Below are positions 15,772-64,000 of a DNA stretch of 64,000 nucleotides, one piece after another. The DNA is from Escherichia coli (GTDB lineage: Bacteria > Pseudomonadota > Gammaproteobacteria > Enterobacterales > Enterobacteriaceae): assembly GCF_013315695.1 (NCBI RefSeq), contig NZ_CP054353.1; one strand, 5' to 3'. Below the pieces are notes generated by a model that saw only the letters and a list, made by a program, of their open reading frames with translations, was not told the origin of the DNA and searched no databases. Made by a program: the position numbers and the translations under genes. Positions within the stretch are counted from its first letter, which is position 1, and each line of letters begins with the position of its first letter.

Positions 15772-17197
15772 TAATGCCAGTCAGTTAAGCAACTGACTGG
15801 CTCTTTTTCGGGGCTGTGGGGTATTTCCAGGGCCTCTCCTTTACCACTCTCGGGAAGGCCCTTTCCCTTCTTGTCGGTAATTTCACAAGTTGTCCCATAC
15901 TTGCAAGATCGCGCATCAGCTCCGGTATACGTCCCGGTGAAGCGCCCTGCAATGTCATCAGCATTCTCATCACCATTCCGCATGATTCTGAGAAACTCAG
16001 TTGATTCGGCCAGTAACCTTTCAGATGTTCCGCCATTTTAATCATCTGATATCTCACCAGATTATAAGCCAGTAAGACACCCCACAGCTCTTGCTCCACA
16101 AGCTCCGGTTTTTTACTTCTCAGCGTCAGCCTGCTCAGTTGCATCGTCTGTTTTATCTCCCTGTATCCCAGTTCGATTTCCCAGCGATGACTGTACAGAT
16201 CCGCCATTTCTCCTCCGGGGAAGCGCATGGCGTCCGTCATCGACGTCAGCAGATGGCAGACTTTTCCTTTGCGCGTCACGGTCAGCAGGCGGGCTGTCAC
16301 TTCATTTCCCAGTCCCGGCCACTTTTTTCGTGCCTGCGGGCTGGTTTTCAGCTTCACCAGATGATCGCCTTTACCCAGTTTTCTGATCTCTTCATATTGC
16401 GCTCCCTTTCTGAGAGGTATCATCCAGTGGCGGTGTTCTCCCGCCAGGCTCCAGGCATTTAACAGTCCCAGTGAGTAATAACCTTTATCCATTAACGTCA
16501 GAGTGTTATCGCCGGTTTGTTCTATAAGTTGCTCAGCAAGCTCATTTTCGCTGTTCTTCATCGTGCCGAAGGCTGCAGCCGTCAGCAGATGGCTGGTCAG
16601 TTCCATCTGGCAGACCATTTTGACCTGCGGGTAGAGCGCCGGGTTCCCGGCATGTGTCTGGCGGGGGAAGGCTGCATCGTTCTCTGGTGTATCCGGTGTG
16701 CGCCAGAACACACCATCGATGGCCAGCAGGGTCAGGCCGCACCAGTGCGGATGCGGCGTGGCGTTATGCCAGAGCTGCGCTGTTTTCGTGAACACGCGGC
16801 GGACAGCCTCACTTCCCAGGCGCTGGCGGGCCTGAATAACGGCACTGGGGGCAACGAAGGGGCGATTGCCCGGCAGCATGATGTCCAGGCGATTCACAAT
16901 CTGGTGAAGAGGTTCTTTACGCTCAAGCGCCATGCCAACAATACACCAGACCATCATTTCGAGGGGAAGACGGCGCTTGCGTAGCGTTACAGTACCTGAT
17001 TCGGCAAGGCAACGAGAGATGAGTTCGGGGTCGAGGTAATCCCCCAGAGAAGTCAGTGGGTTACGCAGAGAATCGTAACGGGATACCAGATCAAGAGCCT
17101 GTCCAATGTGCATAAAAAAATCCGGAAACAAGTGAGCGTTTCCGGATTCTTACACAGCCACTGGATCGGTCAACTGATCCTTAACTGATCGGCATTA
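15772..17197 (-). mobile_element. IS4 insertion sequence, complete (1426 bp)
   Basis: Imperfect terminal inverted repeats TAATGCC(A/G)(G/A)TCAGTTAAG at both ends, intact transposase, perfect 12-bp target duplication; length matches IS4. Confidence 0.85.
15785..17113 (-). CDS. insG: IS4 transposase
   Basis: ORF 15785..17131; start at [10 protein letters not shown] gives 442 aa; recalled as the IS4 InsG sequence. Confidence 0.85.
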
Positions 17198-17209
17198 TCC
17201 CTTCTGGGG
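17198..17209. repeat. IS4 target-site duplication, right copy (TCCCTTCTGGGG)
   Basis: Identical 12-mer abutting the IS4 right end, followed by CCGTTTTTTT. Confidence 0.8.
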
Positions 17210-17470
17210 CCGTTTTTTTGTTTTACCCAAAGCAACTTTCCCATAAACCGACAGCATTTGCCTTCATCATATTTACGGCGATGTATAACGCCTACACACA
17301 GCGATATTGTACTTTACAGGTTACAAGTCAACGTCACTGTAAAAGCGCTCTGTGAGGGGTATAGTGGCGTTAAAGAACTGTCGAGAAGGGTATATACACC
17401 GGATGAAGTGAGTAAAACGAACTGACAGGATAAAAGCGCCCTGCTCACCCTGTCAGTAAAGAAATTCTTA

Positions 17471-24378: not shown

Positions 24379-25056
24379 TTAGTGACGAGCGCGCACCAGC
24401 TGGTACTTACGTGTCAGATACTCCACCGGGACGCTCCAGATGTGTACCAGACGTGAGAACGGGAACAGCAGGAATAACGTCATCCCCAACACCAGGTGCA
24501 GACGGAAGATAAATGCCACACCATCAAGATGTTGAGAAGCACCACCGTGGAAGGTCACTACCGACTGCGCCCAGCCAACCAGTTTCATCATCTCGCTACC
24601 GTCCATATGCTGGGCTGAGAACGGAATGGTCAGCAAGCCCAGCGCGCACTGGATAACGAGCAGCGACAGGATCAGGATATCCGCTCCGGTAGTGGTTGCA
24701 CGCACGCGTGGGCTGAACAGACGACGCTTCAGCAACAGCACGCCGCCAATCAGACACAGCACACCGCTGGCACCACCAGCAAACATCGCCATTTTCTGTT
24801 TCACTTCAATCGGCAGCCAGGCTTCATACATCCAGTGCGGCGTCAGCATACCGAAGAAGTGACCGACAAAAATCCCCAGAATACCGATATGGAACAGGTT
24901 CGACGCCAGGTTCATCCCTTTGCGATCCAGCATCTGGCTGGACGCCGCGCGCCAGGTGTACTGCCCGTAGTCATAACGCAGCCAGCTACCAATCAGGAAG
25001 ACCGCCCCGGCTATGTACGGGTAGATATCAAAGAAGAACATATTCAGGAATTGCAT
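24379..25056 (-). CDS. narI: respiratory nitrate reductase A gamma subunit
   Basis: 225 aa dihaem b membrane subunit; last gene of narGHJI. Confidence 0.93.
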
Positions 25057-25766
25057 TAGTGCTGTCCTCCGGTGGTGATATTCAGATATTGCGGCGCGAC
25101 GGCACCGGCAAAGCGACGCTGATGAGCAGTGATTGCTGAATCACCGCAGCCTTTGTCAGCAAAGAATTTAACCTGCTCTTCTTCCCAGACGGCATCCAGC
25201 GCCTGCGGCGTATCGTCGCGCGCTTCGTCGGCAATTTTTTCCGCCACTTTGTCGCTGTCGATAGCGGTATTCGCCAGTTTCAGCAGCAGATCAAACAGCA
25301 CGGCATAACGGCTTTCACGCTGTTGCAGACGCGCACTCAGCAATGCCAGAATCGGCGCAATATCTTTCAAACCCTCCACGGCTTCGCTTTGCGGCAGCTG
25401 CGCCAGGTACTCCAGATACAGCGGCAGATGGTCGGGCAATTCGCGGCTGTTTAACTGCAAACCGTGCTGCTCATACTGCGCCAGCAGGTCTACCATCGCC
25501 TGACCGCGGTCGCGGGATTCACCGTGCACATGTTCAAACAGCAACAGTGACGTGGCACGGCCACGGTCGAACAGTTCGCTGTACTGGGCCTGAGCATCGA
25601 GCGGATCCATCGCCGTTAAATCGCGCAGGAAAATGCCCAGCGCATGGGCATCTTCTTTCGACAGATTTTTCGACGCGGCAATCGCCTCAAACATCTCTTG
25701 TTGATGCTGCCATAAGGCAGCATCCGGATATTCAAGGAGACGCGATACAATCACGAGTTCGATCAT
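25056..25766 (-). CDS. narJ: nitrate reductase assembly chaperone
   Basis: 236 aa; operon position. Confidence 0.92.
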
Positions 25767-27301
25767 GGGTGCGGCTCCGTTTTGCTGGTTACGTCGATGG
25801 CATCGATACGGCGGCTGTTGAACAGATTGAATTTGGTATCTGAACCGTGGCAGCCATCACCAAAGGTAAAGCCGCAGCCATTTTTCTCCGGGAAGGCTTC
25901 CCGCGCCAGTTCACGATGACTACTCGGCACCACAAAGCGATCTTCGTAGTTAGCAATCGCCAGATAACGGTACATCTCCTGTGCCTGGGCTTCGGTCAGA
26001 CCGACCTCTTCCAGCGCACGGGTATCCACTTTCCCGTCAACGGTTTCAGCACGTTTATAATGACGCATCGCCAGCATACGTTTCAGCGCGCGCAGTACCG
26101 GTTTGGTATCACCGGCGGTCAGCAGATTCGCCAGATACTGTACCGGAATACGCAGGCTTTCGACGTCTGGCAGAATGCCGTTGCTGCCCAGCTCACCCGC
26201 ATCTGCTGCAGACTGAATCGGAGACAGAGGCGGCACGTACCAGACCATCGGCAGTGTGCGATATTCCGGATGCAGCGGCAGCGCCAGTTTCCATTCCATC
26301 GCCATTTTATAAACCGGCGACTGCTGTGCGGCTTCAATAACGCTCAGCGGAATACCGTCTTTAATCGCCTGCTCGATGACTTTCGGATCGTTCGGATCGA
26401 GGAACACGTCCAGCTGACGCTGGTAAAGATCTTTCTCGTTCTCAGTGCTGGCTGCACGTTCAATAGCGTCGGCATCGTACAACAGCACGCCGAGATAACG
26501 GATACGACCGACACAGGTTTCTGAGCACACGGTCGGCTGACCCGCTTCAATACGCGGATAGCAGAAGATGCACTTCTCAGACTTACCGCTCTTCCAGTTG
26601 AAATAGATTTTTTTGTACGGGCATCCGGTGATGCACATACGCCAGCCACGGCATTTATCCTGGTCGATCAGAACGATGCCATCTTCTTCACGCTTGTAAA
26701 TCGCACCGCTCGGGCAGGTCGCCACACATGCCGGGTTCAGGCAGTGTTCGCACAGGCGCGGCAAATACATCATGAAGGTGTTTTCGAACTGGCTATACAT
26801 CGCCTTCTGGATGTTGTCGAAGTTCTTGTCTTTCGCCAGCTTGTCGAACTCACCGCCCAGGTCATCTTCCCAGTTCGGCCCTTTTTCGATTTTCGCCATC
26901 CGTTCGCCGGTAATCAGCGAACGCGGACGGGCAATCGGCTGCGACTTGCTGCCTTCCGGCGCGGTATGCAGGTTCTGATAGTCAAAATCGAACGGCTCGT
27001 AATAATCGTCGATCCCCGGCAGATGCGGGTTAGCGAAGATTTTACCCAGCAGCATGGCGCGGTTACCCATGCGCGGCTGCAGTTTGCCGTTGATTTTACG
27101 GATCCAGCCGCCTTTGTATTTTTCCTGGTTTTCCCAGTCAGTCGGGAAGCCCTGGCCCGGCTTGGTTTCCACGTTGTTGAACCACGCGTATTCCACGCCT
27201 TCGCGGCTGGTCCAGACGTTTTTACAGGTAACTGAACAGGTGTGGCAGCCGATGCACTTATCGAGATTCAGCACCATGCCGACTTGTGAACGAATTTTCA
27301 T
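25763..27301 (-). CDS. narH: respiratory nitrate reductase A beta subunit
   Basis: 512 aa; multiple Cys clusters (CxxCxxCxxxCP) for Fe-S centres. Confidence 0.95.
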   Translation of the reverse strand: MKIRSQVGMVLNLDKCIGCHTCSVTCKNVWTSREGVEYAWFNNVETKPGQGFPTDWENQEKYKGGWIRKINGKLQPRMGNRAMLLGKIFANPHLPGIDDYYEPFDFDYQNLHTAPEGSKSQPIARPRSLITGERMAKIEKGPNWEDDLGGEFDKLAKDKNFDNIQKAMYSQFENTFMMYLPRLCEHCLNPACVATCPSGAIYKREEDGIVLIDQDKCRGWRMCITGCPYKKIYFNWKSGKSEKCIFCYPRIEAGQPTVCSETCVGRIRYLGVLLYDADAIERAASTENEKDLYQRQLDVFLDPNDPKVIEQAIKDGIPLSVIEAAQQSPVYKMAMEWKLALPLHPEYRTLPMVWYVPPLSPIQSAADAGELGSNGILPDVESLRIPVQYLANLLTAGDTKPVLRALKRMLAMRHYKRAETVDGKVDTRALEEVGLTEAQAQEMYRYLAIANYEDRFVVPSSHRELAREAFPEKNGCGFTFGDGCHGSDTKFNLFNSRRIDAIDVTSKTEPHP

Positions 27302-30300
27302 TTTACGCTCTCCTGTACCTGGTCATTGCCTTCGCCATCTAACCAGTCAATGTTCTTCATCTTACGCACTACAACAAACTCATCGCGGTTAGAACCTACG
27401 GTGCCGTAGTAGTTAAAGCCGTATGCCAGATGGGCATAGCCGCCGATCATATGCGTCGGTTTCGGCGTGATACGGGTGACCGAGTTATGGATACCACCAC
27501 GCTGTTGGGTAATTTCCGAACCAGGCAGGTTAACGATACGTTCCTGCGCGTGGTACATCATGGTCATCCCTGCCGGAACACGCTGGCTGACAACCGCACG
27601 GGCAGTCAGAGCACCGTTGCTGTTGAAGACTTCAATCCAGTCGTTATCGGCAATGCCCAGATCTTTGGCATCGGCTTCACTCAGCCAGACCACCGGACCA
27701 CCGCGACCTAAAGTCAGCATCAGCAGGTTGTCGCTGTAGGTGGAGTGGATACCCCACTTCTGGTGCGGCGTCAGGAAGTTGAGCGCTTTTTCCGGGTTGC
27801 CGTTGGATTTCTGCCCCATCACTTCTTTCACCGAACGGGTGTCGATCGGCGGACGATAAACCAGCAGGCTTTCACCGAAATCACGCATCCACTGGTGATC
27901 CTGATACAGTTGCTGACGACCAGAGAGCGTACGCCATGGGATCAGCTCGTGAACGTTGGTGTAACCGGCGTTGTAAGAAACGTGTTCATCTTCCAGACCA
28001 GACCAGGTCGGGCTGGAGATAATTTTGCGCGGCTGTGCCTGAATATCGCGGAAGCGGATCTTCTCGTCTTCTTTATTCAGCGCCAGATGCGTATGGTCAC
28101 GACCGGTAAATTCGCTCAGGGCAGCCCAGGCTTTTACAGCTACCTGACCATTGGTTTCCGGTGCCAGCGTCAGGATCATCTCTGCTGCATCAATTGCGGT
28201 ATTGAGCATCGGCTGACCTTTTGCCGGACCTTCCGCTTTGGTGTAGTTGAGCTTACGCAGCAGATCCATCTCGCTCTGGGTGTTCCAGGCAATCCCTTTA
28301 CCGCCATTACCGATTTTCTCCATCAGCGGGCCGATAGAGGTAAAGCGTTCGTAAGTCGCCGGATAATCGCGCTCTACGACCATAATGTGCGGTGCAGTTT
28401 TACCTGGGATCAGGTCGCATTCGCCTTTTTTCCAGTCTTTCACATCCAGCGGCTGTGCCAGTTCAGCGGCAGAGTCGTGCTGGATAGGCAGCGTGACGAT
28501 GTCGGTTTCTTTACCCAGATGACCAACGCACACTTCGGAGAATTTCCTGGCGATGGCTTTGTAGATTTCCCAGTCGCTTTTCGCTTCCCAGGCCGGATCG
28601 ACCGCCGCAGACAGCGGGTGAATAAACGGATGCATATCCGAAGTATTCATGTCGTCTTTTTCGTACCAGGTCGCCGTCGGCAAAATGATGTCGGAATAGA
28701 GACAGGTGCTCGACAGACGGAAGTCCAGCGTCACCACCAGATCCAGCTTGCCTTCCAGACCATTGTCCTGCCAGTCCACTTCTTCCGGCTTCACGCCGCC
28801 CTGCTGCCCCAGATCTTTACCCTGGATACCGTGCTCCGTCCCCAGCAGGTACTTGAGCATAAACTCATGACCTTTACCGGAAGAACCGAGCAGGTTAGAA
28901 CGCCAGATGAACAGGTTACGCGGGTGGTTTTTACCGTTTTCCGGCTGTTCCGCAGCGAAACGGATAGAACCCTCTTTCAGGGATTTCACCGTATAGTCCA
29001 CCGGATTCATCCCGGCTTTTTCTGCTTCGCGAGCGATAGTCAGCGGGTTAGTGCCTAACTGCGGTGCAGACGGCAGCCAGCCCATGCGTTCCGCACGGAC
29101 GTTAAAGTCGATCAGGTGTCCGGTATAACGGGATTTATCCGCCATCGGTGACAGCAACTCTTCCGCCGTGACGGTTTCATAACGCCACTGGCTGGAGTGG
29201 TTATAGAAATAAGAAGTGCTGTTCATGTGACGCGCCGGACGCTGCCAGTCAAGGGCAAACGCCAGCGGCTGCCAGCCGGTTTGCGGACGCAGTTTTTCCT
29301 GACCTACATAGTGCGCCCAGCCACCCCCGCTCTGACCGACACAGCCGCAGAAAATCAGCATGTTGATCAGACCACGATAGTTCATGTCCAGGTGATACCA
29401 GTGGTTCAGTCCCGCACCGACGATAATCATCGAACGACCGTGCGTTTTATCAGCGTTATCGGCAAATTCACGGGCGATGCGAATAATCTGGCTGCGAGAA
29501 ACGCCAGTGATTTGCTCGGCCCACGCCGGAGTGTAAGCTTTCACATCGTCATAGCTGGCTGCACAGTTAACGTCGTTCAGGCCACGTTCCAGACCATAGT
29601 TTGCCAGCGTCAGATCATAAACGGTGGTCACCAGGGCGGTGCTGCCATCAGCCAGTTGCAAGCGTTTCACCGGCAGCTTGTGCAGCAGCACGTTTTCCAG
29701 TTCCACTTTGTTGAAGTGTTCCGTGCCGTCGCCACCAAAGTACGGGAAGCCCACCTCAGCGATCTCATCCTGGCTACCCAGCAGGCTCAGTTGCAGCTCG
29801 GTTTCTTCGCCAGTTTTGCCGTCGCGCTGCTCAAGATTCCATTTGCCCTTCTCGCCCCAGCGGAAGCCAATAGAACCGTTCGGCGCAACCATTTCGCCAT
29901 TGGTATTAAAGGCGACAGTTTTCCATTCCGGATTGTTTTCCTGGCCCAGCGCATCCACCAGATCGGCAGCGCGCAGCATACGACCTGCGGCGTAGTAACC
30001 GTCGCGTTCTTCCAGCATCACCAGCATCGGCATGTCGGTGTAGCGACGCACATAGTCGGTGAAATACTGGCTTGGGTTGTCGAGGTGGAATTCACGCAGC
30101 ATTACGTGACCCATTGCCAGCGCCATTGCCGCATCGGTGCCCTGTTTCGGTGCCAGCCACAGATCGCACAGTTTGGCGATTTCAGCGTAGTCTGGTGTGA
30201 CGGCAACAGTTTTGGTGCCTTTGTAACGCACTTCAGTAAAGAAGTGAGCATCCGGGGTACGCGTCTGCGGCACGTTTGAACCCCAAGCGATGATGTAGCT

Positions 30301-31041
30301 GGAGTTGTACCAGTCAGCAGATTCCGGTACGTCAGTTTGCTCGCCCCAGGTTTGCGGAGACGCAGGAGGCAGGTCGCAGTACCAGTCGTAGAAGCTTAAG
30401 CAAGTACCGCCAATCAGCGAAAGATAGCGTGCACCCGATGCGTAAGAAACCATCGACATTGCCGGAATTGGCGAGAAGCCAGCGACGCGGTCCGGGCCGT
30501 AGTTTTTGATGGTGTAAACGTTAGAGGCGGCGATCAGTTCATTCACTTCCTGCCAGGAAGAACGAACAAAACCACCGCGTCCACGCGCCTGCTTAAAGCT
30601 TTTCGCTTTATCGGCGTCTTCAATGATAGAAGCCCATGCCTCAACCGGATCGCTATGCAGCGCCTTCGCTTCACGCCACATTTTCATCAGGCGTTTGCGC
30701 ATCATTGGGTATTTCAGGCGGTTGGCGCTGTAAAGATACCAGGAGTAGCTGGCACCGCGCGGGCAGCCGCGAGGTTCATGGTTTGGCAGGTCCGGGCGAG
30801 TACGCGGATAGTCAGTCTGCTGGGTTTCCCAGGTCACCAGACCGTTTTTGACGTAGATTTTCCAGCTGCAGGAGCCGGTGCAGTTTACCCCGTGGGTAGA
30901 GCGGACGATTTTGTCATGCTGCCAACGCTGGCGATATCCATCCTCCCAGTCACGGTTGGTATTGAGAAGCTGGCCATGCCCATCGGCAAAGGTTTCACCC
31001 TTCTGTTTGAAGTAGCGAAACCGGTCCAGGAATTTACTCAT
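27298..31041 (-). CDS. narG: respiratory nitrate reductase A alpha subunit
   Basis: 1247 aa molybdopterin oxidoreductase; N-terminal HGVNCTGSCSWKIY FS0-cluster motif. Confidence 0.96.
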   Translation of the reverse strand: MSKFLDRFRYFKQKGETFADGHGQLLNTNRDWEDGYRQRWQHDKIVRSTHGVNCTGSCSWKIYVKNGLVTWETQQTDYPRTRPDLPNHEPRGCPRGASYSWYLYSANRLKYPMMRKRLMKMWREAKALHSDPVEAWASIIEDADKAKSFKQARGRGGFVRSSWQEVNELIAASNVYTIKNYGPDRVAGFSPIPAMSMVSYASGARYLSLIGGTCLSFYDWYCDLPPASPQTWGEQTDVPESADWYNSSYIIAWGSNVPQTRTPDAHFFTEVRYKGTKTVAVTPDYAEIAKLCDLWLAPKQGTDAAMALAMGHVMLREFHLDNPSQYFTDYVRRYTDMPMLVMLEERDGYYAAGRMLRAADLVDALGQENNPEWKTVAFNTNGEMVAPNGSIGFRWGEKGKWNLEQRDGKTGEETELQLSLLGSQDEIAEVGFPYFGGDGTEHFNKVELENVLLHKLPVKRLQLADGSTALVTTVYDLTLANYGLERGLNDVNCAASYDDVKAYTPAWAEQITGVSRSQIIRIAREFADNADKTHGRSMIIVGAGLNHWYHLDMNYRGLINMLIFCGCVGQSGGGWAHYVGQEKLRPQTGWQPLAFALDWQRPARHMNSTSYFYNHSSQWRYETVTAEELLSPMADKSRYTGHLIDFNVRAERMGWLPSAPQLGTNPLTIAREAEKAGMNPVDYTVKSLKEGSIRFAAEQPENGKNHPRNLFIWRSNLLGSSGKGHEFMLKYLLGTEHGIQGKDLGQQGGVKPEEVDWQDNGLEGKLDLVVTLDFRLSSTCLYSDIILPTATWYEKDDMNTSDMHPFIHPLSAAVDPAWEAKSDWEIYKAIARKFSEVCVGHLGKETDIVTLPIQHDSAAELAQPLDVKDWKKGECDLIPGKTAPHIMVVERDYPATYERFTSIGPLMEKIGNGGKGIAWNTQSEMDLLRKLNYTKAEGPAKGQPMLNTAIDAAEMILTLAPETNGQVAVKAWAALSEFTGRDHTHLALNKEDEKIRFRDIQAQPRKIISSPTWSGLEDEHVSYNAGYTNVHELIPWRTLSGRQQLYQDHQWMRDFGESLLVYRPPIDTRSVKEVMGQKSNGNPEKALNFLTPHQKWGIHSTYSDNLLMLTLGRGGPVVWLSEADAKDLGIADNDWIEVFNSNGALTARAVVSQRVPAGMTMMYHAQERIVNLPGSEITQQRGGIHNSVTRITPKPTHMIGGYAHLAYGFNYYGTVGSNRDEFVVVRKMKNIDWLDGEGNDQVQESVK

Positions 31042-31132
31042 CGGTTTTCTCCTGTGGGAGCCTGTCGGCCCTCTGATAAATCGACATTGCTAATGTTTAA
31101 GGGCAAAGTAACGCTCTGAAACAGCGTGAGAA

Positions 31133-31146
31133 TTGATAACGATCAA
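31133..31146. promoter_or_regulatory. FNR box (TTGAT-AACG-ATCAA) in the narG promoter
   Basis: Perfect TTGAT-N4-ATCAA palindrome ~90 bp upstream of the narG start codon. Confidence 0.65.
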
Positions 31147-31183
31147 GAGTGATGGGGATGAAAAATAAAGTAAATTCCTAAGA

Positions 31184-31190
31184 TACCCCT
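31184..31190. promoter_or_regulatory. NarL heptamer (TACCCCT) in the narG upstream region
   Basis: Exact TACCCCT heptamer ~145 bp upstream of narG in an AT-rich control region; single-site call. Confidence 0.4.
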
Positions 31191-31434
31191 TTAGGATAAT
31201 TAGCAGTTACAGCATAACACGCTGTAAATTAAGACGTTTTATACCTGTAGTTATTTAAACTATTAAGATTTTTATGCAGATGGGTATTAAGGAGTATTCC
31301 CCATGGGTAACATATTAATGGCTCTTAATGAAATCCGGCGAAATAAGCCAATATAATATGAGTATGTTGTAACTAAATGACGCATAAAAAAAGCGCGACA
31401 TCATGCCGCGCAAAGGATAATCAAATATTAAGAT

Positions 31435-32826
31435 TTATTTTTTAGAATGCCGACCATATACCGCCCAGGTAATCACCACGCAGGCGATATAGAAAATCAA
31501 AAATACTTTCATTGCGCCGACTGGCGAACCCGTTAATGCCAGCGAGCTACCAAACGCTTTCGGGATAAAGAAGCCACCAATCGCGCCAATCGCAGAGATG
31601 AAACCCAGCGCCGCCGCCGTGTCGGTTGCCGCTTCACGCATCGCACGTTCGTCAGAACCCCCTTCTGCTTTCACGCGATCCATTGTCAGTTTACGGAAGA
31701 TCACGGAAATCATCTGGAAAGTGGAACCACTACCCAGCCCAGCTGTCAGGAACAGCGCCAGGAAGACTGCGAAGAACGCCATGAAGCTTCCGCCCTGTCC
31801 GTCAGTCGGTAAGGTCAGGAACAGCAGGCCGCTGAAAATCGCCATCAGGATAAAGTTCACCAGCGTGACACGAGTTCCGCCCAGACGGTCAGATAATGCA
31901 CCACCTGCAGAACGCGCCAGCGCACCAATAAACGGCCCGAAGAAAGCGTATTGCAGAATCTGAACATCCGGGAACTGCGTTTTTGACAGCATCGCAAAGC
32001 CCGCGGAGAAGCCGATGAAGGAGCCGAAGGTTGCCAGATACAGCAGGCTCATAATCCACAGATGACCCCGTTTGAGTACCGGCAACTGCTCCTTGATGGA
32101 GGCTTTCGAGGTAGCAAGATCGTTCATGCCAAACCACGCTGCAATGGTGAAGATGGCAAGGAACGGCACCCATACCCAGGACGCATTCGCCAGATACAGC
32201 TCAGTCCCATCCGGCTGTTTGACACCCTGGCTACCAAATACTGCGAAAATCGACAGTGATACCACCAGCGGAGCAACCAACTGCATGACGCTGACGCCCA
32301 TGTTGCCCAGACCACCATTCAGACCCAACGCGCCACCCTGCTTCTGTTTCGGAAAGAAGAAGCTGATGTTTGCCATACTGGATGCGAAGTTCGCGCCAGC
32401 AAAGCCGCACAGCAGAGAGATGATGATGAAGACGCTATAAGGCGTGGAGGTATCCTGCACGGCAAAACCCAGCCAGACGCAAGGAATAATCAGAATACCG
32501 GTGCTGAACGCCGTCCAGCGACGACCACCGAAGATAGGAACCATAAAGGAGTATGGAACACGTAATAACGCGCCAGAAACCGAAGGCAGCGCAGTCAACA
32601 TAAATAGCTGATCGGTCGTAAAATTAAAACCGACTTTCGGTAAGTTCACCGCAACAGCGCTGAACAACATCCATACGCAAAACGCCAGCAGCAGACAGGG
32701 AACGGAAATCCACAGGTTGCGGCTGGCAATACGTTGACCGCGTTGTTGCCAGAACGCAGGATCTTCCGGTCGCCAATCTGTAATGACAGCTCCAGTAGCC
32801 CTTTCGGGGGCGGATGAGTGACTCAT
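31435..32826 (-). CDS. narK: nitrate/nitrite transporter NarK (MFS)
   Basis: ORF 31435..32832; start at MSHSSAPERATG gives 463 aa; 12-TM MFS protein. Confidence 0.92.
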   Translation of the reverse strand: MSHSSAPERATGAVITDWRPEDPAFWQQRGQRIASRNLWISVPCLLLAFCVWMLFSAVAVNLPKVGFNFTTDQLFMLTALPSVSGALLRVPYSFMVPIFGGRRWTAFSTGILIIPCVWLGFAVQDTSTPYSVFIIISLLCGFAGANFASSMANISFFFPKQKQGGALGLNGGLGNMGVSVMQLVAPLVVSLSIFAVFGSQGVKQPDGTELYLANASWVWVPFLAIFTIAAWFGMNDLATSKASIKEQLPVLKRGHLWIMSLLYLATFGSFIGFSAGFAMLSKTQFPDVQILQYAFFGPFIGALARSAGGALSDRLGGTRVTLVNFILMAIFSGLLFLTLPTDGQGGSFMAFFAVFLALFLTAGLGSGSTFQMISVIFRKLTMDRVKAEGGSDERAMREAATDTAAALGFISAIGAIGGFFIPKAFGSSLALTGSPVGAMKVFLIFYIACVVITWAVYGRHSKK

Positions 32827-32885
32827 AGACACCTCTGATACTCGTTTCGATGTCTGCCACCTTAGTGTCTGTAGCTAAAGGCAAT

Positions 32886-32899
32886 TTGATGTAAATCAA
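32886..32899. promoter_or_regulatory. FNR box (TTGAT-GTAA-ATCAA) in the narK promoter
   Basis: Perfect TTGAT-N4-ATCAA palindrome ~60 bp upstream of the narK start codon. Confidence 0.6.
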
Positions 32900-33164
32900 A
32901 CGATAAGATAACTTTATCTATCATTGATATTTATCATTACCCATAGTGAGTACAGTGATTTCATAAAAATTATGAGATTTTTCACGGTGCTGTAAAATCC
33001 CTCCCCTTACCGATGTAAAGCGACTAACCACGCGGCAAATAAGGAGTAACTCTTTCCGGGTATGGGTATACTTCAGCCAATAGCCGAGAATACTGCCATT
33101 CCAGAATGTATCGTCACATTCATTAAGGTTATTGCTCATTTAAAGCCTGAAGGAAGAGGTTTAC

Positions 33165-34961
33165 ATGCTTACACGTTGTCTCTCTCCGCTCACCCTGGTT
33201 AATCAGGTTGCGCTTATTGTGTTGCTTTCTACTGCTATTGGACTGGCAGGGATGGCAGTTTCTGGCTGGCTAGTGCAAGGAGTTCAGGGCAGCGCCCATG
33301 CGATCAACAAAGCGGGATCGCTGCGCATGCAAAGTTACCGTCTGTTGGCGGCAGTGCCATTAAGCGAGAAAGACAAGCCCTTAATTAAAGAAATGGAACA
33401 AACGGCATTTAGCGCCGAGTTGACTCGAGCAGCGGAACGAGACGGACAACTGGCGCAATTACAGGGTTTACAAGATTACTGGCGTAATGAACTGATCCCT
33501 GCGCTGATGCGTGCACAAAACCGCGAAACGGTGTCAGCGGATGTCAGCCAGTTTGTTGCCGGGCTTGATCAGCTGGTATCTGGTTTTGACCGCACCACGG
33601 AAATGCGCATTGAGACAGTGGTACTGGTCCATCGGGTAATGGCGGTATTTATGGCACTTTTACTGGTGTTCACTATTATCTGGTTGCGGGCGCGACTGCT
33701 ACAACCGTGGCGGCAACTGCTGGCAATGGCGAGTGCCGTCAGCCATCGCGATTTTACCCAACGCGCAAACATCAGCGGGCGCAACGAAATGGCGATGCTT
33801 GGAACTGCATTGAACAATATGTCTGCAGAACTGGCCGAAAGTTATGCCGTACTTGAGCAGCGGGTTCAGGAGAAAACTGCCGGGCTGGAGCATAAAAATC
33901 AGATCCTCTCTTTTTTATGGCAGGCTAACCGCCGTTTGCATTCCCGCGCCCCGCTGTGTGAACGCCTGTCACCGGTACTCAACGGCTTACAGAATTTAAC
34001 CCTGCTACGTGATATCGAACTGCGGGTGTATGACACTGATGATGAAGAGAATCATCAGGAGTTTACCTGCCAGCCAGATATGACTTGTGATGATAAAGGC
34101 TGCCAGCTCTGCCCGCGCGGCATATTACCCGTTGGCGATCGCGGCACAACCCTGAAGTGGCGGCTGGCTGACTCTCATACGCAGTACGGTATTTTGCTGG
34201 CGACCCTGCCGCAGGGGCGTCATCTTAGCCATGATCAACAACAACTGGTGGATACCCTGGTTGAACAACTCACCGCCACGCTGGCGCTGGATCGGCATCA
34301 GGAACGTCAGCAACAGTTGATCGTGATGGAAGAGCGTGCCACCATTGCGCGCGAACTGCATGATTCTATTGCCCAATCTCTCTCTTGCATGAAGATGCAG
34401 GTGAGTTGTTTACAGATGCAGGGCGATGCGCTGCCAGAAAGCAGCCGCGAACTGTTAAGTCAGATCCGTAACGAACTGAATGCATCCTGGGCGCAGTTGC
34501 GTGAATTGCTCACTACATTCCGCTTGCAGCTCACCGAGCCTGGATTACGTCCGGCGCTGGAGGCGAGTTGCGAAGAGTACAGCGCCAAATTTGGCTTCCC
34601 GGTGAAGCTGGATTATCAATTGCCGCCTCGTCTGGTGCCTTCGCATCAGGCAATCCACTTGTTGCAAATTGCCCGTGAGGCATTAAGTAACGCCCTCAAA
34701 CATTCGCAAGCGAGTGAGGTCGTGGTGACGGTGGCGCAAAACGATAATCAGGTCAAACTGACCGTCCAGGATAACGGCTGCGGCGTGCCTGAAAATGCCA
34801 TCCGCAGCAATCACTACGGCATGATAATAATGCGCGACCGTGCGCAAAGTTTACGAGGCGATTGCCGCGTCCGCCGTCGTGAATCAGGTGGCACCGAAGT
34901 GGTTGTCACCTTTATTCCCGAAAAAACTTTCACAGACGTCCAAGGAGATACCCATGAGTAA
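33165..34961 (+). CDS. narX: nitrate/nitrite sensor histidine kinase NarX
   Basis: 598 aa; two TM segments, HAMP, H-box ELHDSIAQ, HATPase domain. Confidence 0.94.
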
Positions 34962-35604
34962 TCAGGAACCGGCTACTATCCTGCTGATCGACGATCACCC
35001 GATGCTGCGAACTGGCGTAAAACAGCTTATCAGTATGGCACCAGATATCACCGTGGTTGGCGAAGCGAGTAATGGCGAACAGGGTATTGAACTGGCGGAA
35101 TCTCTTGATCCCGATCTGATCCTGTTAGATCTCAATATGCCCGGCATGAATGGTCTGGAAACGCTGGATAAACTCCGCGAAAAGTCCCTCTCAGGGCGCA
35201 TTGTGGTATTCAGCGTCTCTAACCATGAAGAAGATGTGGTCACCGCACTGAAACGCGGCGCGGATGGCTATCTGTTAAAAGATATGGAACCGGAAGATCT
35301 GCTGAAAGCGTTACATCAGGCAGCTGCTGGCGAAATGGTATTAAGCGAAGCATTAACGCCTGTTCTGGCCGCCAGCTTGCGCGCAAACCGTGCCACTACT
35401 GAGCGCGACGTTAACCAGTTAACCCCACGCGAGCGCGATATTCTCAAGCTGATTGCCCAGGGTTTGCCGAACAAGATGATTGCCCGCCGCCTGGATATCA
35501 CCGAAAGCACAGTAAAAGTGCACGTCAAGCACATGCTGAAGAAAATGAAGCTCAAGTCTCGCGTGGAAGCTGCGGTATGGGTGCATCAGGAGCGCATTTT
35601 CTGA
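34954..35604 (+). CDS. narL: nitrate/nitrite response regulator NarL
   Basis: ORF 34840..35604; start at [19 protein letters not shown] gives 216 aa; receiver plus LuxR-type HTH; start overlaps the narX stop by 8 nt. Confidence 0.94.
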
Positions 35605-59536: not shown

Positions 59537-61236
59537 TTGATGAAATCCCCCGCACCTTCTCGCCCGCAAAAAATGGCGTTAATTCCAGCCTGCATCTTTT
59601 TGTGTTTCGCTGCGCTATCGGTGCAGGCAGAAGAAACATCGGTAACACCACAACCGCCTGATATTTTATTAGGGCCGCTGTTTAATGATGTGCAAAACGC
59701 CAAACTTTTTCCGGACCAAAAAACCTTTGCCGATGCCGTGCCGAACAGCGATCCGCTGATGATCCTTGCTGATTATCGGATGCAGCAAAACCAGAGCGGA
59801 TTTGATCTACGCCATTTCGTTAACGTCAATTTCACCCTGCCGAAAGAGGGCGAGAAATATGTTCCGCCAGAGGGGCAATCACTGCGCGAACATATTGACG
59901 GACTTTGGCCGGTATTAACGCGTTCTACCGAAAATACCGAAAAATGGGATTCTCTGTTACCGCTGCCGGAACCTTATGTCGTGCCGGGCGGACGTTTTCG
60001 CGAGGTATATTACTGGGACAGTTACTTCACCATGTTAGGGCTTGCCGAAAGCGGTCACTGGGATAAAGTCGCGGATATGGTGGCCAATTTTGCTCATGAA
60101 ATAGACACTTACGGTCATATTCCCAACGGCAACCGCAGTTACTATTTAAGCCGCTCGCAGCCGCCCTTCTTTGCCCTGATGGTAGAGTTACTGGCGCAGC
60201 ATGAAGGCGATGCCGCGTTGAAACAATACCTGCCGCAAATGCAAAAAGAATATGCTTACTGGATGGACGGTGTTGAAAACCTGCAAGCCGGACAACAGGA
60301 AAAACGCGTTGTCAAACTTCAGGATGGTACCCTTCTCAACCGCTACTGGGACGATCGCGATACGCCACGACCAGAGTCATGGGTGGAAGATATTGCCACC
60401 GCCAAAAGCAATCCGAATCGACCTGCCACTGAAATTTACCGCGACCTGCGCTCTGCCGCTGCGTCTGGCTGGGATTTCAGCTCGCGCTGGATGGACAATC
60501 CGCAGCAGTTAAATACCTTACGCACCACCAGCATCGTACCGGTCGATCTGAACAGCCTGATGTTTAAAATGGAAAAAATCCTCGCCCGCGCCAGCAAAGC
60601 TGCCGGAGATAACGCGATGGCAAACCAGTACGAAACGCTGGCGAATGCCCGTCAAAAAGGGATCGAAAAATACCTGTGGAACGATCAACAAGGCTGGTAT
60701 GCCGATTACGACCTGAAAAGTCATAAAGTGCGCAATCAGTTAACCGCGGCCGCCCTGTTCCCGCTGTACGTCAATGCGGCAGCGAAAGATCGCGCCAGCA
60801 AAATGGCGACGGCGACGAAAACACATCTGCTGCAACCCGGCGGCCTGAACACCACGTCGGTGAAAAGTGGACAACAATGGGATGCGCCAAACGGCTGGGC
60901 ACCGTTGCAGTGGGTCGCGACAGAAGGATTACAAAACTACGGGCAAAAAGAGGTGGCGATGGACATTAGCTGGCACTTCCTGACCAATGTTCAGCACACC
61001 TATGACCGGGAGAAAAAGCTGGTGGAAAAATATGATGTCAGCGCCACCGGAACGGGGGGCGGGGTGGCGAATATCCATTACAGGATGGCTTTGGCTGGAC
61101 CAATGGCGTGACGCTGAAAATGCTGGATTTGATCTGCCCGAAAGAGCAACCGTGTGACAATGTTCCGGCGACGCGTCCACTCAGTGAATCAACAACACAA
61201 CCGCTAAAACAAAAAGAGGCGGAACCTACGCCTTAA
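59537..61236 (+). pseudogene. treA: periplasmic trehalase treA, disrupted by a 1-nt frameshift near the 3' end
   Basis: ORF 59537..61111 (524 aa) ends ...[20 protein letters not shown]. The +1 frame from ~61069 continues for 55 codons as [37 protein letters not shown]... to a TAA at 61234..61236, which is the expected trehalase C-terminus. The shift lies in the G-rich tract 61055..61069. Confidence 0.6.
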
Positions 61237-61551
61237 CTTTACTGTATATCGAGCAATGCCATTACATGCATAAAATTGGCATTGCTCTTTCTTCACCACG
61301 AAATACCACTCTTTCTACGGTCTATGCCTTTATTTTCTTTTATTAGAGAAGATTTTAATTTTATTTTATCAACTTGTTAATCATTACACCTCTATTTATA
61401 TTTTCCCCCACTCCCCATTCTCCCTGACAATTTTCTTGTGGAACAAAGTGTTATTTAAGCAACAAGCAAATCATTCTGTCTCTTTAGACAAATTTTGGTG
61501 ATGCTGCCAACTTACTGATTTAGTGTATGATGGTGTTTTTGAGGTGCTCCA

Positions 61552-61827
61552 GTGGCTTCTGTTTCTATCAGCTGTCCCTCCTGTTCAGCTACTGACGGGG
61601 TGGTGCGTAACGGCAAAAGCACCGCCGGACATCAGCGCTATCTCTGCTCTCACTGCCGTAAAACATGGCAACTGCAGTTCACTTACACCGCTTCTCAACC
61701 CGGTACGCACCAGAAAATCATTGATATGGCCATGAATGGCGTTGGATGCCGGGCAACAGCCCGCATTATGGGCGTTGGCCTCAACACGATTTTACGTCAC
61801 TTAAAAAACTCAGGCCGCAGTCGGTAA
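61552..61827 (+). CDS. insA: IS1 InsA
   Basis: 91 aa, [43 protein letters not shown]... Confidence 0.9.
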
Positions 61828-62249
61828 CCTCGCGCATACAGCCGGGCAGTGACGTCATCGTCTGCGCGGAAATGGACGAACAGTGGGGCTATGTCGGGGC
61901 TAAATCGCGCCAGCGCTGGCTGTTTTACGCGTATGACAGGCTCCGGAAGACGGTTGTTGCGCACGTATTCGGTGAACGCACTATGGCGACGCTGGGGCGT
62001 CTTATGAGCCTGCTGTCACCCTTTGACGTGGTGATATGGATGACGGATGGCTGGCCGCTGTATGAATCCCGCCTGAAGGGAAAGCTGCACGTAATCAGCA
62101 AGCGATATACGCAGCGAATTGAGCGGCATAACCTGAATCTGAGGCAGCACCTGGCACGGCTGGGACGGAAGTCGCTGTCGTTCTCAAAATCGGTGGAGCT
62201 GCATGACAAAGTCATCGGGCATTATCTGAACATAAAACACTATCAATAA
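61746..62249 (+). CDS. insB: IS1 InsB (transposase reading frame, expressed as InsAB' by -1 frameshifting)
   Basis: 167-aa ORF overlapping the insA 3' end in the -1 frame; recalled InsB sequence. Confidence 0.88.
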
Positions 62250-62341
62250 GTTGGAGTCATTACCCAAATTTTGACATCAAACATGATCTTTTTCGCTATA
62301 TGTGTAAGTATATAGCGGTTTTAATTATCAGGATATTACTT

Positions 62342-63364
62342 ATGTCACTAACCAGACGGAGGTTTACACAGATTCTTGCGTCGACATTGTTCCTGCATCA
62401 TCTGCCGTCCTTTGCACAATCAGTCAAATTCTGGGCCTCACTGACGCTTCCCGAAGCCCAAAACATTACACGCATCGTCAGCGCAGGCGCGCCCGCCGAT
62501 TTACTATTGCTGGCTGTCGCGCCAGAAAAAATGGTCGGTTTTTCCTCTTTTGATTTTGCCCGTCAGGCATTAATTCCATTGCCAGAGCACATTCGCCAGT
62601 TCCCCAGGCTGGGACGACTCGCCGGGCGCGCCAGCACACTCTCGCTGGAAGGGCTTATGGCGTTACATCCCGATTTGGTCGTTGATTGCGGCAATACGGA
62701 TGAAACCTGGATCTCCCAGGCACGGCAGGTTAGCGAACAGACACAAATACCCTGGTTATTGCTTAACGGGAAACTGGAACAATCAGCAGAACAGTTAACA
62801 ACGCTTGGCAAAACGTTAGGCGAAGAGCACCGCGCCACAGAACAAGCCAATCTCGCCAGCCGCTTCGTTGGTGAAGCTCAGGCATTCGCCACCTCACCCG
62901 CCGCTAACCTCAGCTTTTATGCTGCGCGCGGTCCTCGAGGGCTGGAAACGGGCTTACAGGGTTCGTTGCATACCGAGGCGGCAGAATTATTAGGTTTGCA
63001 TAACGTCGCGCAAATAGCCGATCGCCACGGTCTGACACAGGTTTCCATGGAAAATCTCCTGCGCTGGCAGCCGGATATTATTCTGGTTCAGGAGGCCGTT
63101 ACTGCAGATTTTATTCGTCGTGATCCTCTCTGGCAGGGCGTGAAAGCGGTTGCGGAACAACGCATCTTATTTTTAAGTGGCCTGCCCTTTGGCTGGCTGG
63201 ATGCCCCGCCGGGAATCAACCGTCTTCTGGGATTACGCAGACTTCACGCCTGGCTGGATCCCGCCATCAATCGTCAGTTTAAAAGTGACATGCAGCATTA
63301 TGCCCAACTGTTCTGGCATTGTTCACTCAGTGACGCCGACTATCAAAAATTGGTGGCGAGCTAA
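62342..63364 (+). CDS. ABC transporter periplasmic substrate-binding protein, iron-siderophore/cobalamin (TroA-like) family, Tat-type signal
   Basis: ORF 62300..63364; start at MSLTRRRFTQILASTLFLHHLPSFAQ (twin-arginine-like motif); general resemblance to FecB/FhuD/BtuF-class binding proteins; directly followed by a FecCD-type permease. Family assignment is from sequence character only. Confidence 0.6.
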   Translation: MSLTRRRFTQILASTLFLHHLPSFAQSVKFWASLTLPEAQNITRIVSAGAPADLLLLAVAPEKMVGFSSFDFARQALIPLPEHIRQFPRLGRLAGRASTLSLEGLMALHPDLVVDCGNTDETWISQARQVSEQTQIPWLLLNGKLEQSAEQLTTLGKTLGEEHRATEQANLASRFVGEAQAFATSPAANLSFYAARGPRGLETGLQGSLHTEAAELLGLHNVAQIADRHGLTQVSMENLLRWQPDIILVQEAVTADFIRRDPLWQGVKAVAEQRILFLSGLPFGWLDAPPGINRLLGLRRLHAWLDPAINRQFKSDMQHYAQLFWHCSLSDADYQKLVAS

Positions 63365-64000
63365 TGAGAACCGTAAACGGATGTATTTTGCTGCTGGCAG
63401 CTATCAGTATCACTTTTGCCGCCGTAAGTGGGGCTTATCATCTCGATATGCAGCAATTGCTGGCGCTCATTCTTCGTCAAGAAAATGTTCCTGTGCAGGA
63501 ACAAATTGTCTTCTGGCAAATCCGCGTGCCGCGTATTCTTGCTGCGCTGTTTCTGGGCGCGGCGCTGGCAGGGGCCGGAACCACCTATCAGGGAATGTTC
63601 CGTAATCCCTTAGTGTCACCGGATATTTTAGGCGTCTCCGCCGGTGCCGGACTTGGTGCCTGCGCGGCAATCCTGTGGGGATTATCCATTGTTTACATCC
63701 AGCTGTACGCATTTTGCGGCGGGCTGATGGTGGTCGCGGGCGTCTGGTTGATTACGCGTCGGGTGACCCGCCACGATCCGATCTTAACCCTGGTGCTGGT
63801 AGGTATTGCGTTAGGCACGTTGTGCGGAGCGGGGATATCGCTAATAAAAACGCTGGCCGATCCTTACACCCAGTTACCGTCAATTACCTTCTGGTTGCTG
63901 GGGGGGCTGTCCACCGTGACCTTACGCGATCTCTGCTATGCTGCACCGATCATTCTCATAGGCTCCTTGCCCCTGTTTTTTCTCCGCTGGCGCATGAATT
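63364..64000 (+). CDS. ABC transporter permease, FecCD family (partial; runs off the window end)
   Basis: ATG at 63364 overlaps the upstream stop (TAATG); translation MRTVNGCILLLAAISITFAAVSG...RVPRILAALFLGAALAGAGTTYQGMFRNPLVSPDILGVSAGAGLGA... is typical of FecCD/BtuC permeases. Not in the ORF track because it is truncated by the window. Confidence 0.6.
   Translation, partial: MRTVNGCILLLAAISITFAAVSGAYHLDMQQLLALILRQENVPVQEQIVFWQIRVPRILAALFLGAALAGAGTTYQGMFRNPLVSPDILGVSAGAGLGACAAILWGLSIVYIQLYAFCGGLMVVAGVWLITRRVTRHDPILTLVLVGIALGTLCGAGISLIKTLADPYTQLPSITFWLLGGLSTVTLRDLCYAAPIILIGSLPLFFLRWRMN

Follow-up and report, generated by a model that had tools for sequence, protein, structure and literature searches.

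A treA-ymgE island of Escherichia coli labelled as iron uptake may encode a ModE-repressed molybdenum or tungsten acquisition system

The right end of a 64,000-nucleotide stretch of Escherichia coli DNA (contig NZ_CP054353.1; the whole stretch is referred to as the window) contains the first part of an operon of six co-directional genes that runs from treA towards ymgE, with a copy of the insertion sequence IS1 in front of it. Genes past the window end were read from the complete genome of E. coli AF3, a blood isolate identical to the window, and in order the six genes encode a substrate-binding protein, a FecCD permease, an ATP-binding cassette (ABC) ATPase, a class I S-adenosylmethionine (SAM) methyltransferase, ModD and a TonB-dependent receptor. 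We consider it fairly likely that this operon, repressed by ModE and dependent on TonB, acquires molybdenum or tungsten through a MolBC-like importer and is not an iron system, because a ModE operator is conserved upstream, a Fur box was not found, MolBC is the nearest characterised transporter, the operon is linked to ModD and to modABC or modE, and no iron equivalog model was passed. The iron label that databases attach to the locus is probably wrong.

The locus is already known as the prrA-modD-yc73-fepC cluster, which was reportedly first named by Guyer et al. in 1998 from a pathogenicity island of strain CFT073. In O157:H7 it is known as O-island 55 (OI#55) or S-loop 83 and comprises ECs1693-1699, and in the avian pathogenic E. 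coli strain BEN2908 it is GR9; the papers found regard it, from homology alone, as a putative iron-uptake locus (PMC1890555, PMC2323221, PMC12928451). In the part of the literature that was covered, no link of the cluster to ModE, molybdenum or MolBC-A was found. An internal stop codon makes the methyltransferase gene a pseudogene in the O157:H7 strain 8368 (locus L002, 11845-12657), and the older literature therefore counts seven open reading frames (ORFs) in ECs1693-1699. The features of the window on which the proposal depends are as follows.

62271..62284, plus strand, conserved TTGACA or TTGAy-N4-nnCAa element, a putative -35 hexamer or FNR-type site
62294..62317, no strand assigned, candidate operator of ModE (the molybdate-responsive repressor), CGCTATATG-TGTAAG-TATATAGCG, by consensus match
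62330..62333, plus strand, Shine-Dalgarno AGGA 8 nt 5' of the ATG, read from the sequence
62342..63364, plus strand, periplasmic substrate-binding protein of 340 amino acids, Peripla_BP_2, by profile match, signal and structure model
63364..64000, plus strand, FecCD-family type II ABC importer permease, truncated at the window end after 212 of 326 codons, by profile match

The candidate operator is a 24-nt palindrome, CGCTATATGTGTAAGTATATAGCG, located 25 nt 5' of the binding-protein start codon, with the box beginning at -48. It differs by one mismatch from the CGNTATATA-N6-TATATANCG core (pattern CGnTATATA-N6-TATATAnCG), and the E. coli ModE consensus has been given as ATCGNTATATA-N6-TATATANCGAT (PMC545781). 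This was the sole match to the pattern in the window, where 0.10 matches would be expected at three or fewer mismatches, and none of 100 shuffled sequences (0/100) contained a match at one mismatch or less. The same pattern recovered the classical K-12 operators of modA (two mismatches, starting at -43 from the ATG) and moaA (one mismatch), to which the match here is equal in quality, and a perfect core is present upstream of the operon in O157. The palindrome was flagged as terminator-like by a promoter scan; this assignment was rejected, as the stem is AT-rich and conservation tracks the half-sites and not base pairing.

Conservation of the box was assessed in 80 loci from a species-level genome collection, comprising approximately 1.4 Mb of locus sequence. 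Approximately 32 of the 36 gammaproteobacterial loci, from Escherichia to Shewanella, have a ModE box with zero to two mismatches 40-58 nt 5' of the binding-protein gene, while the rest of the intergenic sequence in the loci keeping the box has diverged. A related palindrome is found in the Rhizobiales at -54 to -66 of the binding-protein gene. Receptor genes that are transcribed separately have a box of their own in Shewanella fodinae and S. indica (0 mismatches), a Caulobacterales genome (1), Lautropia (2) and Hyphomonadaceae (2-3), and boxes outside of upstream positions are almost absent from the locus sequence. The operon thus probably belongs to the molybdenum (ModE) regulon.

The sequence-only reading of this DNA that preceded the analysis had proposed a metal-chelate uptake system. 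This is right at the level of protein family, but the iron or Fur control that it implied is unsupported: in the IS-free intergenic region upstream of 62342 no Fur box above chance was found, the best match being 13/19, which was reached by 22% of shuffles. An Rfam search of the IS-free leader returned only chance-level matches and no riboswitch or other known RNA. The TTGAy-N4-nnCAa element keeps the same distance to the ModE box (offset -23) in 16/16 Enterobacteriaceae loci and matches the FNR consensus TTGAT-N4-ATCAA at 7-9 of 10 positions; a match of at least 8/10 was present in 12 of the 16 loci compared with 5% of shuffles. The element may be a -35 element or an FNR-type site, and if the latter is true the expression of the operon would be coupled to anaerobiosis.

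Homology of the transport components also points towards molybdenum. Both genes in the window score above the gathering cutoffs of the families expected for them, with 61.3 bits for the binding protein against Peripla_BP_2 (PF01497, cutoff 27.5) and 299 bits for the full-length permease, taken from AF3, against FecCD (PF01032, cutoff 26.5). The solved structure closest to the permease is H. influenzae MolB HI1471 (2nq2_A, 222 bits), ahead of FhuB (175), HmuU (168) and BtuC (146), and MolC HI1470 (2nq2_C) is the best single-domain solved match of the ATPase. Molybdate and tungstate are the substrates of MolBC-A, and molybdate represses molB (PMC4031551); the H. influenzae locus comprises HI1469 modA, molABC and HI1473 modD (PMC3928620). 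Equivalog hidden Markov models (HMMs) for iron, haem, siderophore and B12 systems (Fec, Fep, Fhu and others), run on all subunits, remained far below their cutoffs.

ModD, the fifth gene product, scored 500 bits against TIGR01334 (cutoff 179) and has the QRPTase_N and QRPTase_C domains. It keeps TRK, HR and acidic residues, which are most of the phosphoribosyltransferase catalytic residues, and has a Phe at the position aligned to K172, which we take to be the residue number in the quinolinate phosphoribosyltransferase (QPRTase) of M. tuberculosis. In Geobacter (PMC2700814, PMC545781) and in Zymomonas (PMC8594446), the ModD family has links to modABC or modE. Five alphaproteobacterial loci have a homologue of the binding protein next to modA or modABC, and in another locus its neighbour is a modE-like gene.

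The two genes within the window conform to an exported binding protein and its partner permease, as the sequence-only reading had described them. The binding-protein N-terminus, MSLTRRRFTQIL, has a twin-arginine (Tat) type signal in residues 1-25 (MSLTRRRF...SFA|QS), which against the motif S/T-R-R-x-F-L-K reads T-R-R-R-F-T-Q followed by the predicted SFA|QS cleavage site. The RR pair is invariant in 16/16 diverse homologues, the SRRxFIK form occurs in Pasteurellaceae, and export of the protein by the twin-arginine pathway is predicted. FhuD is likewise a binding protein of the Tat type. The longest ORF begins at an ATG at 62300, inside the ModE box; 62342 is taken as the true start because the N-termini of homologues, the AGGA at 62330-62333 and RefSeq agree on it. 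The translational coupling that had been noted is seen at TAATG (63362-63366), where the permease ATG (63364) and the binding-protein TAA share 1 nt, and the permease does run off the window. The ATPase and the receptor that were expected past the window end are present in AF3, as are the methyltransferase and ModD genes, while no regulator gene of the operon was found past the window end in the AF3 annotation.

A mechanism consistent with these features can be proposed, in which ModE binding, repression and the substrate are predictions. When molybdate is sufficient, ModE-molybdate would bind 62294-62317 and block transcription, the operator being placed between or over the promoter elements in the geometry of the modA operator, and the operon would be derepressed when molybdate is scarce. 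The outer-membrane receptor, energised by TonB, would then capture a molybdenum species, which the Tat-exported binding protein would hand to the MolBC-like type II ABC importer. In the cytoplasm the methyltransferase and the QPRTase-like ModD would act on the cargo or its carrier. The cargo could be a free oxyanion or a molybdenum complex, and the presence of the methyltransferase and ModD hints at an organic moiety. To the more specific proposal, that the 'iron' island is a TonB-dependent, ModE-repressed system for molybdenum or tungsten scavenging, which may import a molybdenum complex or cofactor-like compound processed by the methyltransferase and ModD, we would assign an even chance.

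Several observations weigh against the molybdenum assignment. All functional calls for the operon in the papers found, which rest on homology, are as putative iron uptake, and the best HMM matches of the receptor, although sub-threshold, are siderophore and haem receptor subfamilies. The binding protein matches MolA weakly (34 bits over 74 residues, partial). Its AlphaFold2 model (predicted local distance difference test, pLDDT, 89) has the two-lobe fold with a long connecting helix of the Peripla_BP_2, cluster A proteins, and the top Foldseek match to this model was 4pag, an uncharacterised Sulfurospirillum protein (template modelling score, TM, 0.79), while MolA (3psa) was at rank 6 with a TM of 0.66-0.69. 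No convincing -10 hexamer was seen, as TTGACA plus 17 nt gives a poor candidate. Repression is predicted from the position of the box only, since ModE also activates some promoters, and the cargo may be a complex because a TonB-dependent route would be unusual for a small oxyanion. ModD and the methyltransferase appear dispensable for part of the function, since some homologous operons have no ModD and the methyltransferase gene of O157 strain 8368 is a pseudogene.

The binding-protein structure was also considered as a guide to the ligand and set aside as not decisive; its subgroup mixes uncharacterised proteins, MolA and YiuA. A fold search with the methyltransferase model returned generic small-molecule class I methyltransferases only (TM of 0.56 or less) and gave no clue to a substrate.

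Alternative explanations were rated separately, and the ratings do not form a partition. One of them concerns the consequences of the IS1 insertion, for which the relevant features are these.

61489..61496, no strand assigned, left copy of the target-site duplication, CAAATTTT, with the empty site present in O157
61497..62264, plus strand, complete IS1 (IS1A-like) of 768 bp with insA, insB' and the A6C frameshift site
62265..62272, no strand assigned, right copy of the target-site duplication, CAAATTTT, read from the sequence

A complete IS1 with an 8-bp flanking repeat had been described here from the sequence, and each part of that description, including the coordinates, was borne out. The element measures exactly 768 bp, as expected for a family of approximately 768 bp, and has the canonical, imperfect terminal inverted repeats GGTGATGCTGCCAACTTACTGAT and GGTAATGACTCCAACTTATTGAT (approximately 23-bp class), the insA ORF (61552-61827), the insB' ORF (61746-62249) and the A6C site for -1 frameshifting (AAAAAAC, 61803-61809). 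RefSeq labels the identical sequence in AF3 as an IS1A-family transposase with programmed frameshift. Removal in silico of the IS1 and one copy of CAAATTTT gives the exact junction of IS-free genomes, such as O157:H7, in which the sequence is uninterrupted. Among 5426 complete E. coli genomes, to which the counts below also refer, two have an IS1 at exactly this site; the IS1 is thus a recent, lineage-specific and routine insertion, and only it is strain-specific in this region. The source genome has at least 40 copies of IS1.

It is conceivable, if unlikely, that this IS1 cut the operon off from its native promoter or silenced it by polarity, and that the locus is becoming a cluster of pseudogenes as treA is. 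A consensus-like promoter (TTGTTA-17-TATATT, 61374-61402) lies 5' of the IS1, which would have lengthened its distance to the operon by 768 bp; the neighbouring treA carries a frameshift, and the abundance of IS1 in the genome would also be consistent with silencing. That distal match is, however, no better than chance, given that a promoter scan of the upstream region gave nothing convincing (3 found against 2.3 expected). The IS1 lies 77 nt 5' of the binding-protein start codon, with TTGACA beginning 6 nt 3' of its end, so that the TTGAy element, the ModE box and the ribosome-binding site are all 3' of it, and all six genes are intact in AF3. Since the TTGACA motif, the operator, the Shine-Dalgarno and the six genes are intact 3' of the IS1, its effect on expression of the operon is probably little or only quantitative.

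We regard as rather improbable the explanation on which the island has been labelled until now, namely a Fur-type uptake system for an iron chelate (siderophore, citrate or haem) by which pathogenic E. coli scavenge iron and in which the palindrome would be incidental or a secondary input. In RefSeq the first gene carries the name 'iron ABC transporter substrate-binding protein', ECs1693-1699 have been listed among iron-uptake loci (PMC2323221) and iron uptake has been proposed for prrA-modD-yc73-fepC (PMC1890555, PMC12928451). The Peripla_BP_2, FecCD and TonB-dependent receptor families are typical of iron-chelate systems, and the siderophore and haem matches of the receptor mentioned above agree with this. 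These assignments are nevertheless homologies at the family level, with no equivalog model at cutoff, and the upstream region lacks a Fur box above chance. A near-perfect ModE operator has instead been kept in the expected regulatory position across classes, the nearest characterised permease and ATPase are those of MolBC and not of Fec, Fhu, Fep or Hmu, and the operon is linked to modD, modABC and modE.

An operon under ModE control with a cargo other than molybdenum (another metal, an oxyanion such as vanadate, or an organic cofactor) also seems rather improbable. It would be a molybdenum-sparing response, bringing in something that the cell needs when molybdenum runs short, in parallel to the repression of alternative nitrogenase genes by ModE that is known from other organisms (PMC12327845, PMC9542535). 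In its favour, the regulatory evidence ties the operon to molybdenum status and does not identify the cargo, large cofactors are the usual load of type II importers that work with TonB-dependent receptors, and an organic moiety is suggested by the methyltransferase and the phosphoribosyltransferase-like enzyme. Against it, molybdate and tungstate are what the nearest characterised transporter imports (PMC4031551), a shared substrate is the better fit to the direct adjacency to modABC in several lineages, and E. coli is not known to have molybdenum-independent substitutes that would need import.

The operon is present in 2148 of the 5426 genomes (approximately 40%), including O157:H7 and extraintestinal pathogens, and the K-12-type ycgY segment in 3179. 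Together they cover 98% of the genomes and therefore behave as two alternative alleles, whose homology is interrupted from the treA stop codon up to a point 24 bp ahead of the receptor stop codon. In K-12, treA is followed by ycgY and ymgE, as the sequence-only reading had stated. That reading had also suggested strain-specific accessory content, and had named in advance the synteny of an ancestral treA neighbourhood as evidence to the contrary. The region is indeed variable and its IS1 is strain-specific, but the operon belongs to the ancestral, conserved neighbourhood of treA and occupies the same slot across genera, being found between treA and ymgE/emtA in E. albertii, eight Citrobacter species, Raoultella, a Klebsiella metagenome-assembled genome and several 'Enterobacter' isolates. 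Identity between E. coli and Citrobacter is 71-84% for the six operon proteins, in line with 65-91% for the flanking core genes, and the GC content of the operon (52.5%) is similar to that of the flanks (51-52%). Judged by this synteny, divergence and GC content, the operon is an old resident of the locus that was lost by K-12-type lineages, and K-12 has a deletion allele; a recent horizontal acquisition was considered and rejected on the same data.

Both ycgY and the six-gene operon are present between treA and ymgE in E. albertii (locus L007, 8513-8958). E. coli genomes have either ycgY or the operon, a pattern that points to two alternative deletions in an ancestral arrangement. In Shewanella and in some operons of Erwinia and Klebsiella, modD is lacking while the methyltransferase and receptor genes are retained, and most Rhizobiales loci consist of the three transporter genes only. 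ModD is therefore an optional add-on. Two unusual records were noted in the collection. A 2.5-kb contig labelled as a Collinsella sp. metagenome-assembled genome (JAIJJM010000486.1) is 99% identical to the E. coli operon and almost certainly represents E. coli DNA that contaminates an actinobacterial metagenome bin. Scaffold 1 of Affinibrenneria salicis contains the locus twice, with identical matches and a ModE box unusually far from the gene (-276), reflecting either a large duplication or an artefact of assembly.

On its left the variable region is bordered by treA, which is followed by a probable terminator.

59540..61236, plus strand, treA (periplasmic trehalase), a pseudogene and left border of the variable region
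61251..61295, plus strand, probable intrinsic terminator of treA, consisting of GAGCAATGCCA, 16 nt, TGGCATTGCTC and a T-rich run, read from the sequence

The treA gene is frameshifted by a 1-nt deletion near 61062 (K-12 GGCGGCGG, window GGCGG-GG), which gives a product of 524 amino acids with an altered C-terminus, compared with 565 amino acids for the intact protein. RefSeq also flags treA as frameshifted in AF3 and in the O157 strain 8368. The stop codon is at 61234-61236 and the IS1 starts 260 bp 3' of treA, in agreement with the spacing of about 260 bp that had been estimated. The 11-nt inverted repeat of the putative terminator is also present in O157 (strain 8368, locus L002, 8757-8793).

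Elsewhere in the window, the annotation of the identical genome places a prophage remnant with an IS3-family transposase at approximately 1-1800 and an IS4 between adhE and tdk at approximately 15900-17250. The genes narGHJI, narK and narXL (approximately 24400-35600), encoding nitrate reductase, a molybdoenzyme, and its regulators, are located approximately 27 kb from the operon; this proximity is probably coincidental, reflecting ordinary K-12 map order.

The feature flagged in this DNA is in itself ordinary, a known variable locus with a recent IS1 alongside, and the analysis adds evidence against the 'iron' label and for membership in the molybdenum regulon. Molybdoenzymes, including the nitrate, DMSO (dimethyl sulfoxide) and TMAO (trimethylamine N-oxide) reductases and formate dehydrogenases, drive the anaerobic respiration behind the bloom of Enterobacteriaceae in the inflamed gut. 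If the proposal is true, Enterobacteriaceae would have an outer-membrane, energy-dependent route of molybdenum uptake, and a high-affinity TonB-dependent route present in some lineages only could affect fitness. It would also give a testable role, in a genetically tractable organism, to ModD, whose function has to our knowledge been without explanation since the early 1990s.

In comparison with known systems, the operon is the prrA-modD-yc73-fepC cluster itself: the O157 copy is 97% identical over 1.7 kb and agrees in its six genes, their order and the position between treA and ymgE, whereas the window copy has the IS1 77 nt 5' of its first gene. The IS1 itself agrees with IS1A in its length of 768 bp, terminal repeats, insA and insB', A6C site and target duplication, the last being 8 bp compared with the usual 9 bp; a duplication of 8 bp is a recognised variant for IS1. 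The operon shares its architecture and protein families with FecABCDE, FhuACDB, FepA-FepBDGC and BtuB-BtuFCD, but is without a Fur box or B12 riboswitch, passes no equivalog HMM and includes two cytoplasmic enzymes. With E. coli modABC it shares the operator consensus, the box starting at -43 at modA and at -48 here, where the operator is predicted from sequence; ModABC is a type I importer with the unrelated ModA and without an outer-membrane receptor. H. influenzae MolBC-A (HI1470-HI1472) provides the nearest solved permease and ATPase, has a binding protein of the same fold subgroup and likewise has modD alongside. The binding proteins of the two systems are only remotely similar (34 bits), and a TonB-dependent receptor and a methyltransferase are found in addition in the E. 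coli operon. MolA binds oxyanions with low affinity, whereas dependence on TonB would imply high-affinity capture or a larger cargo.

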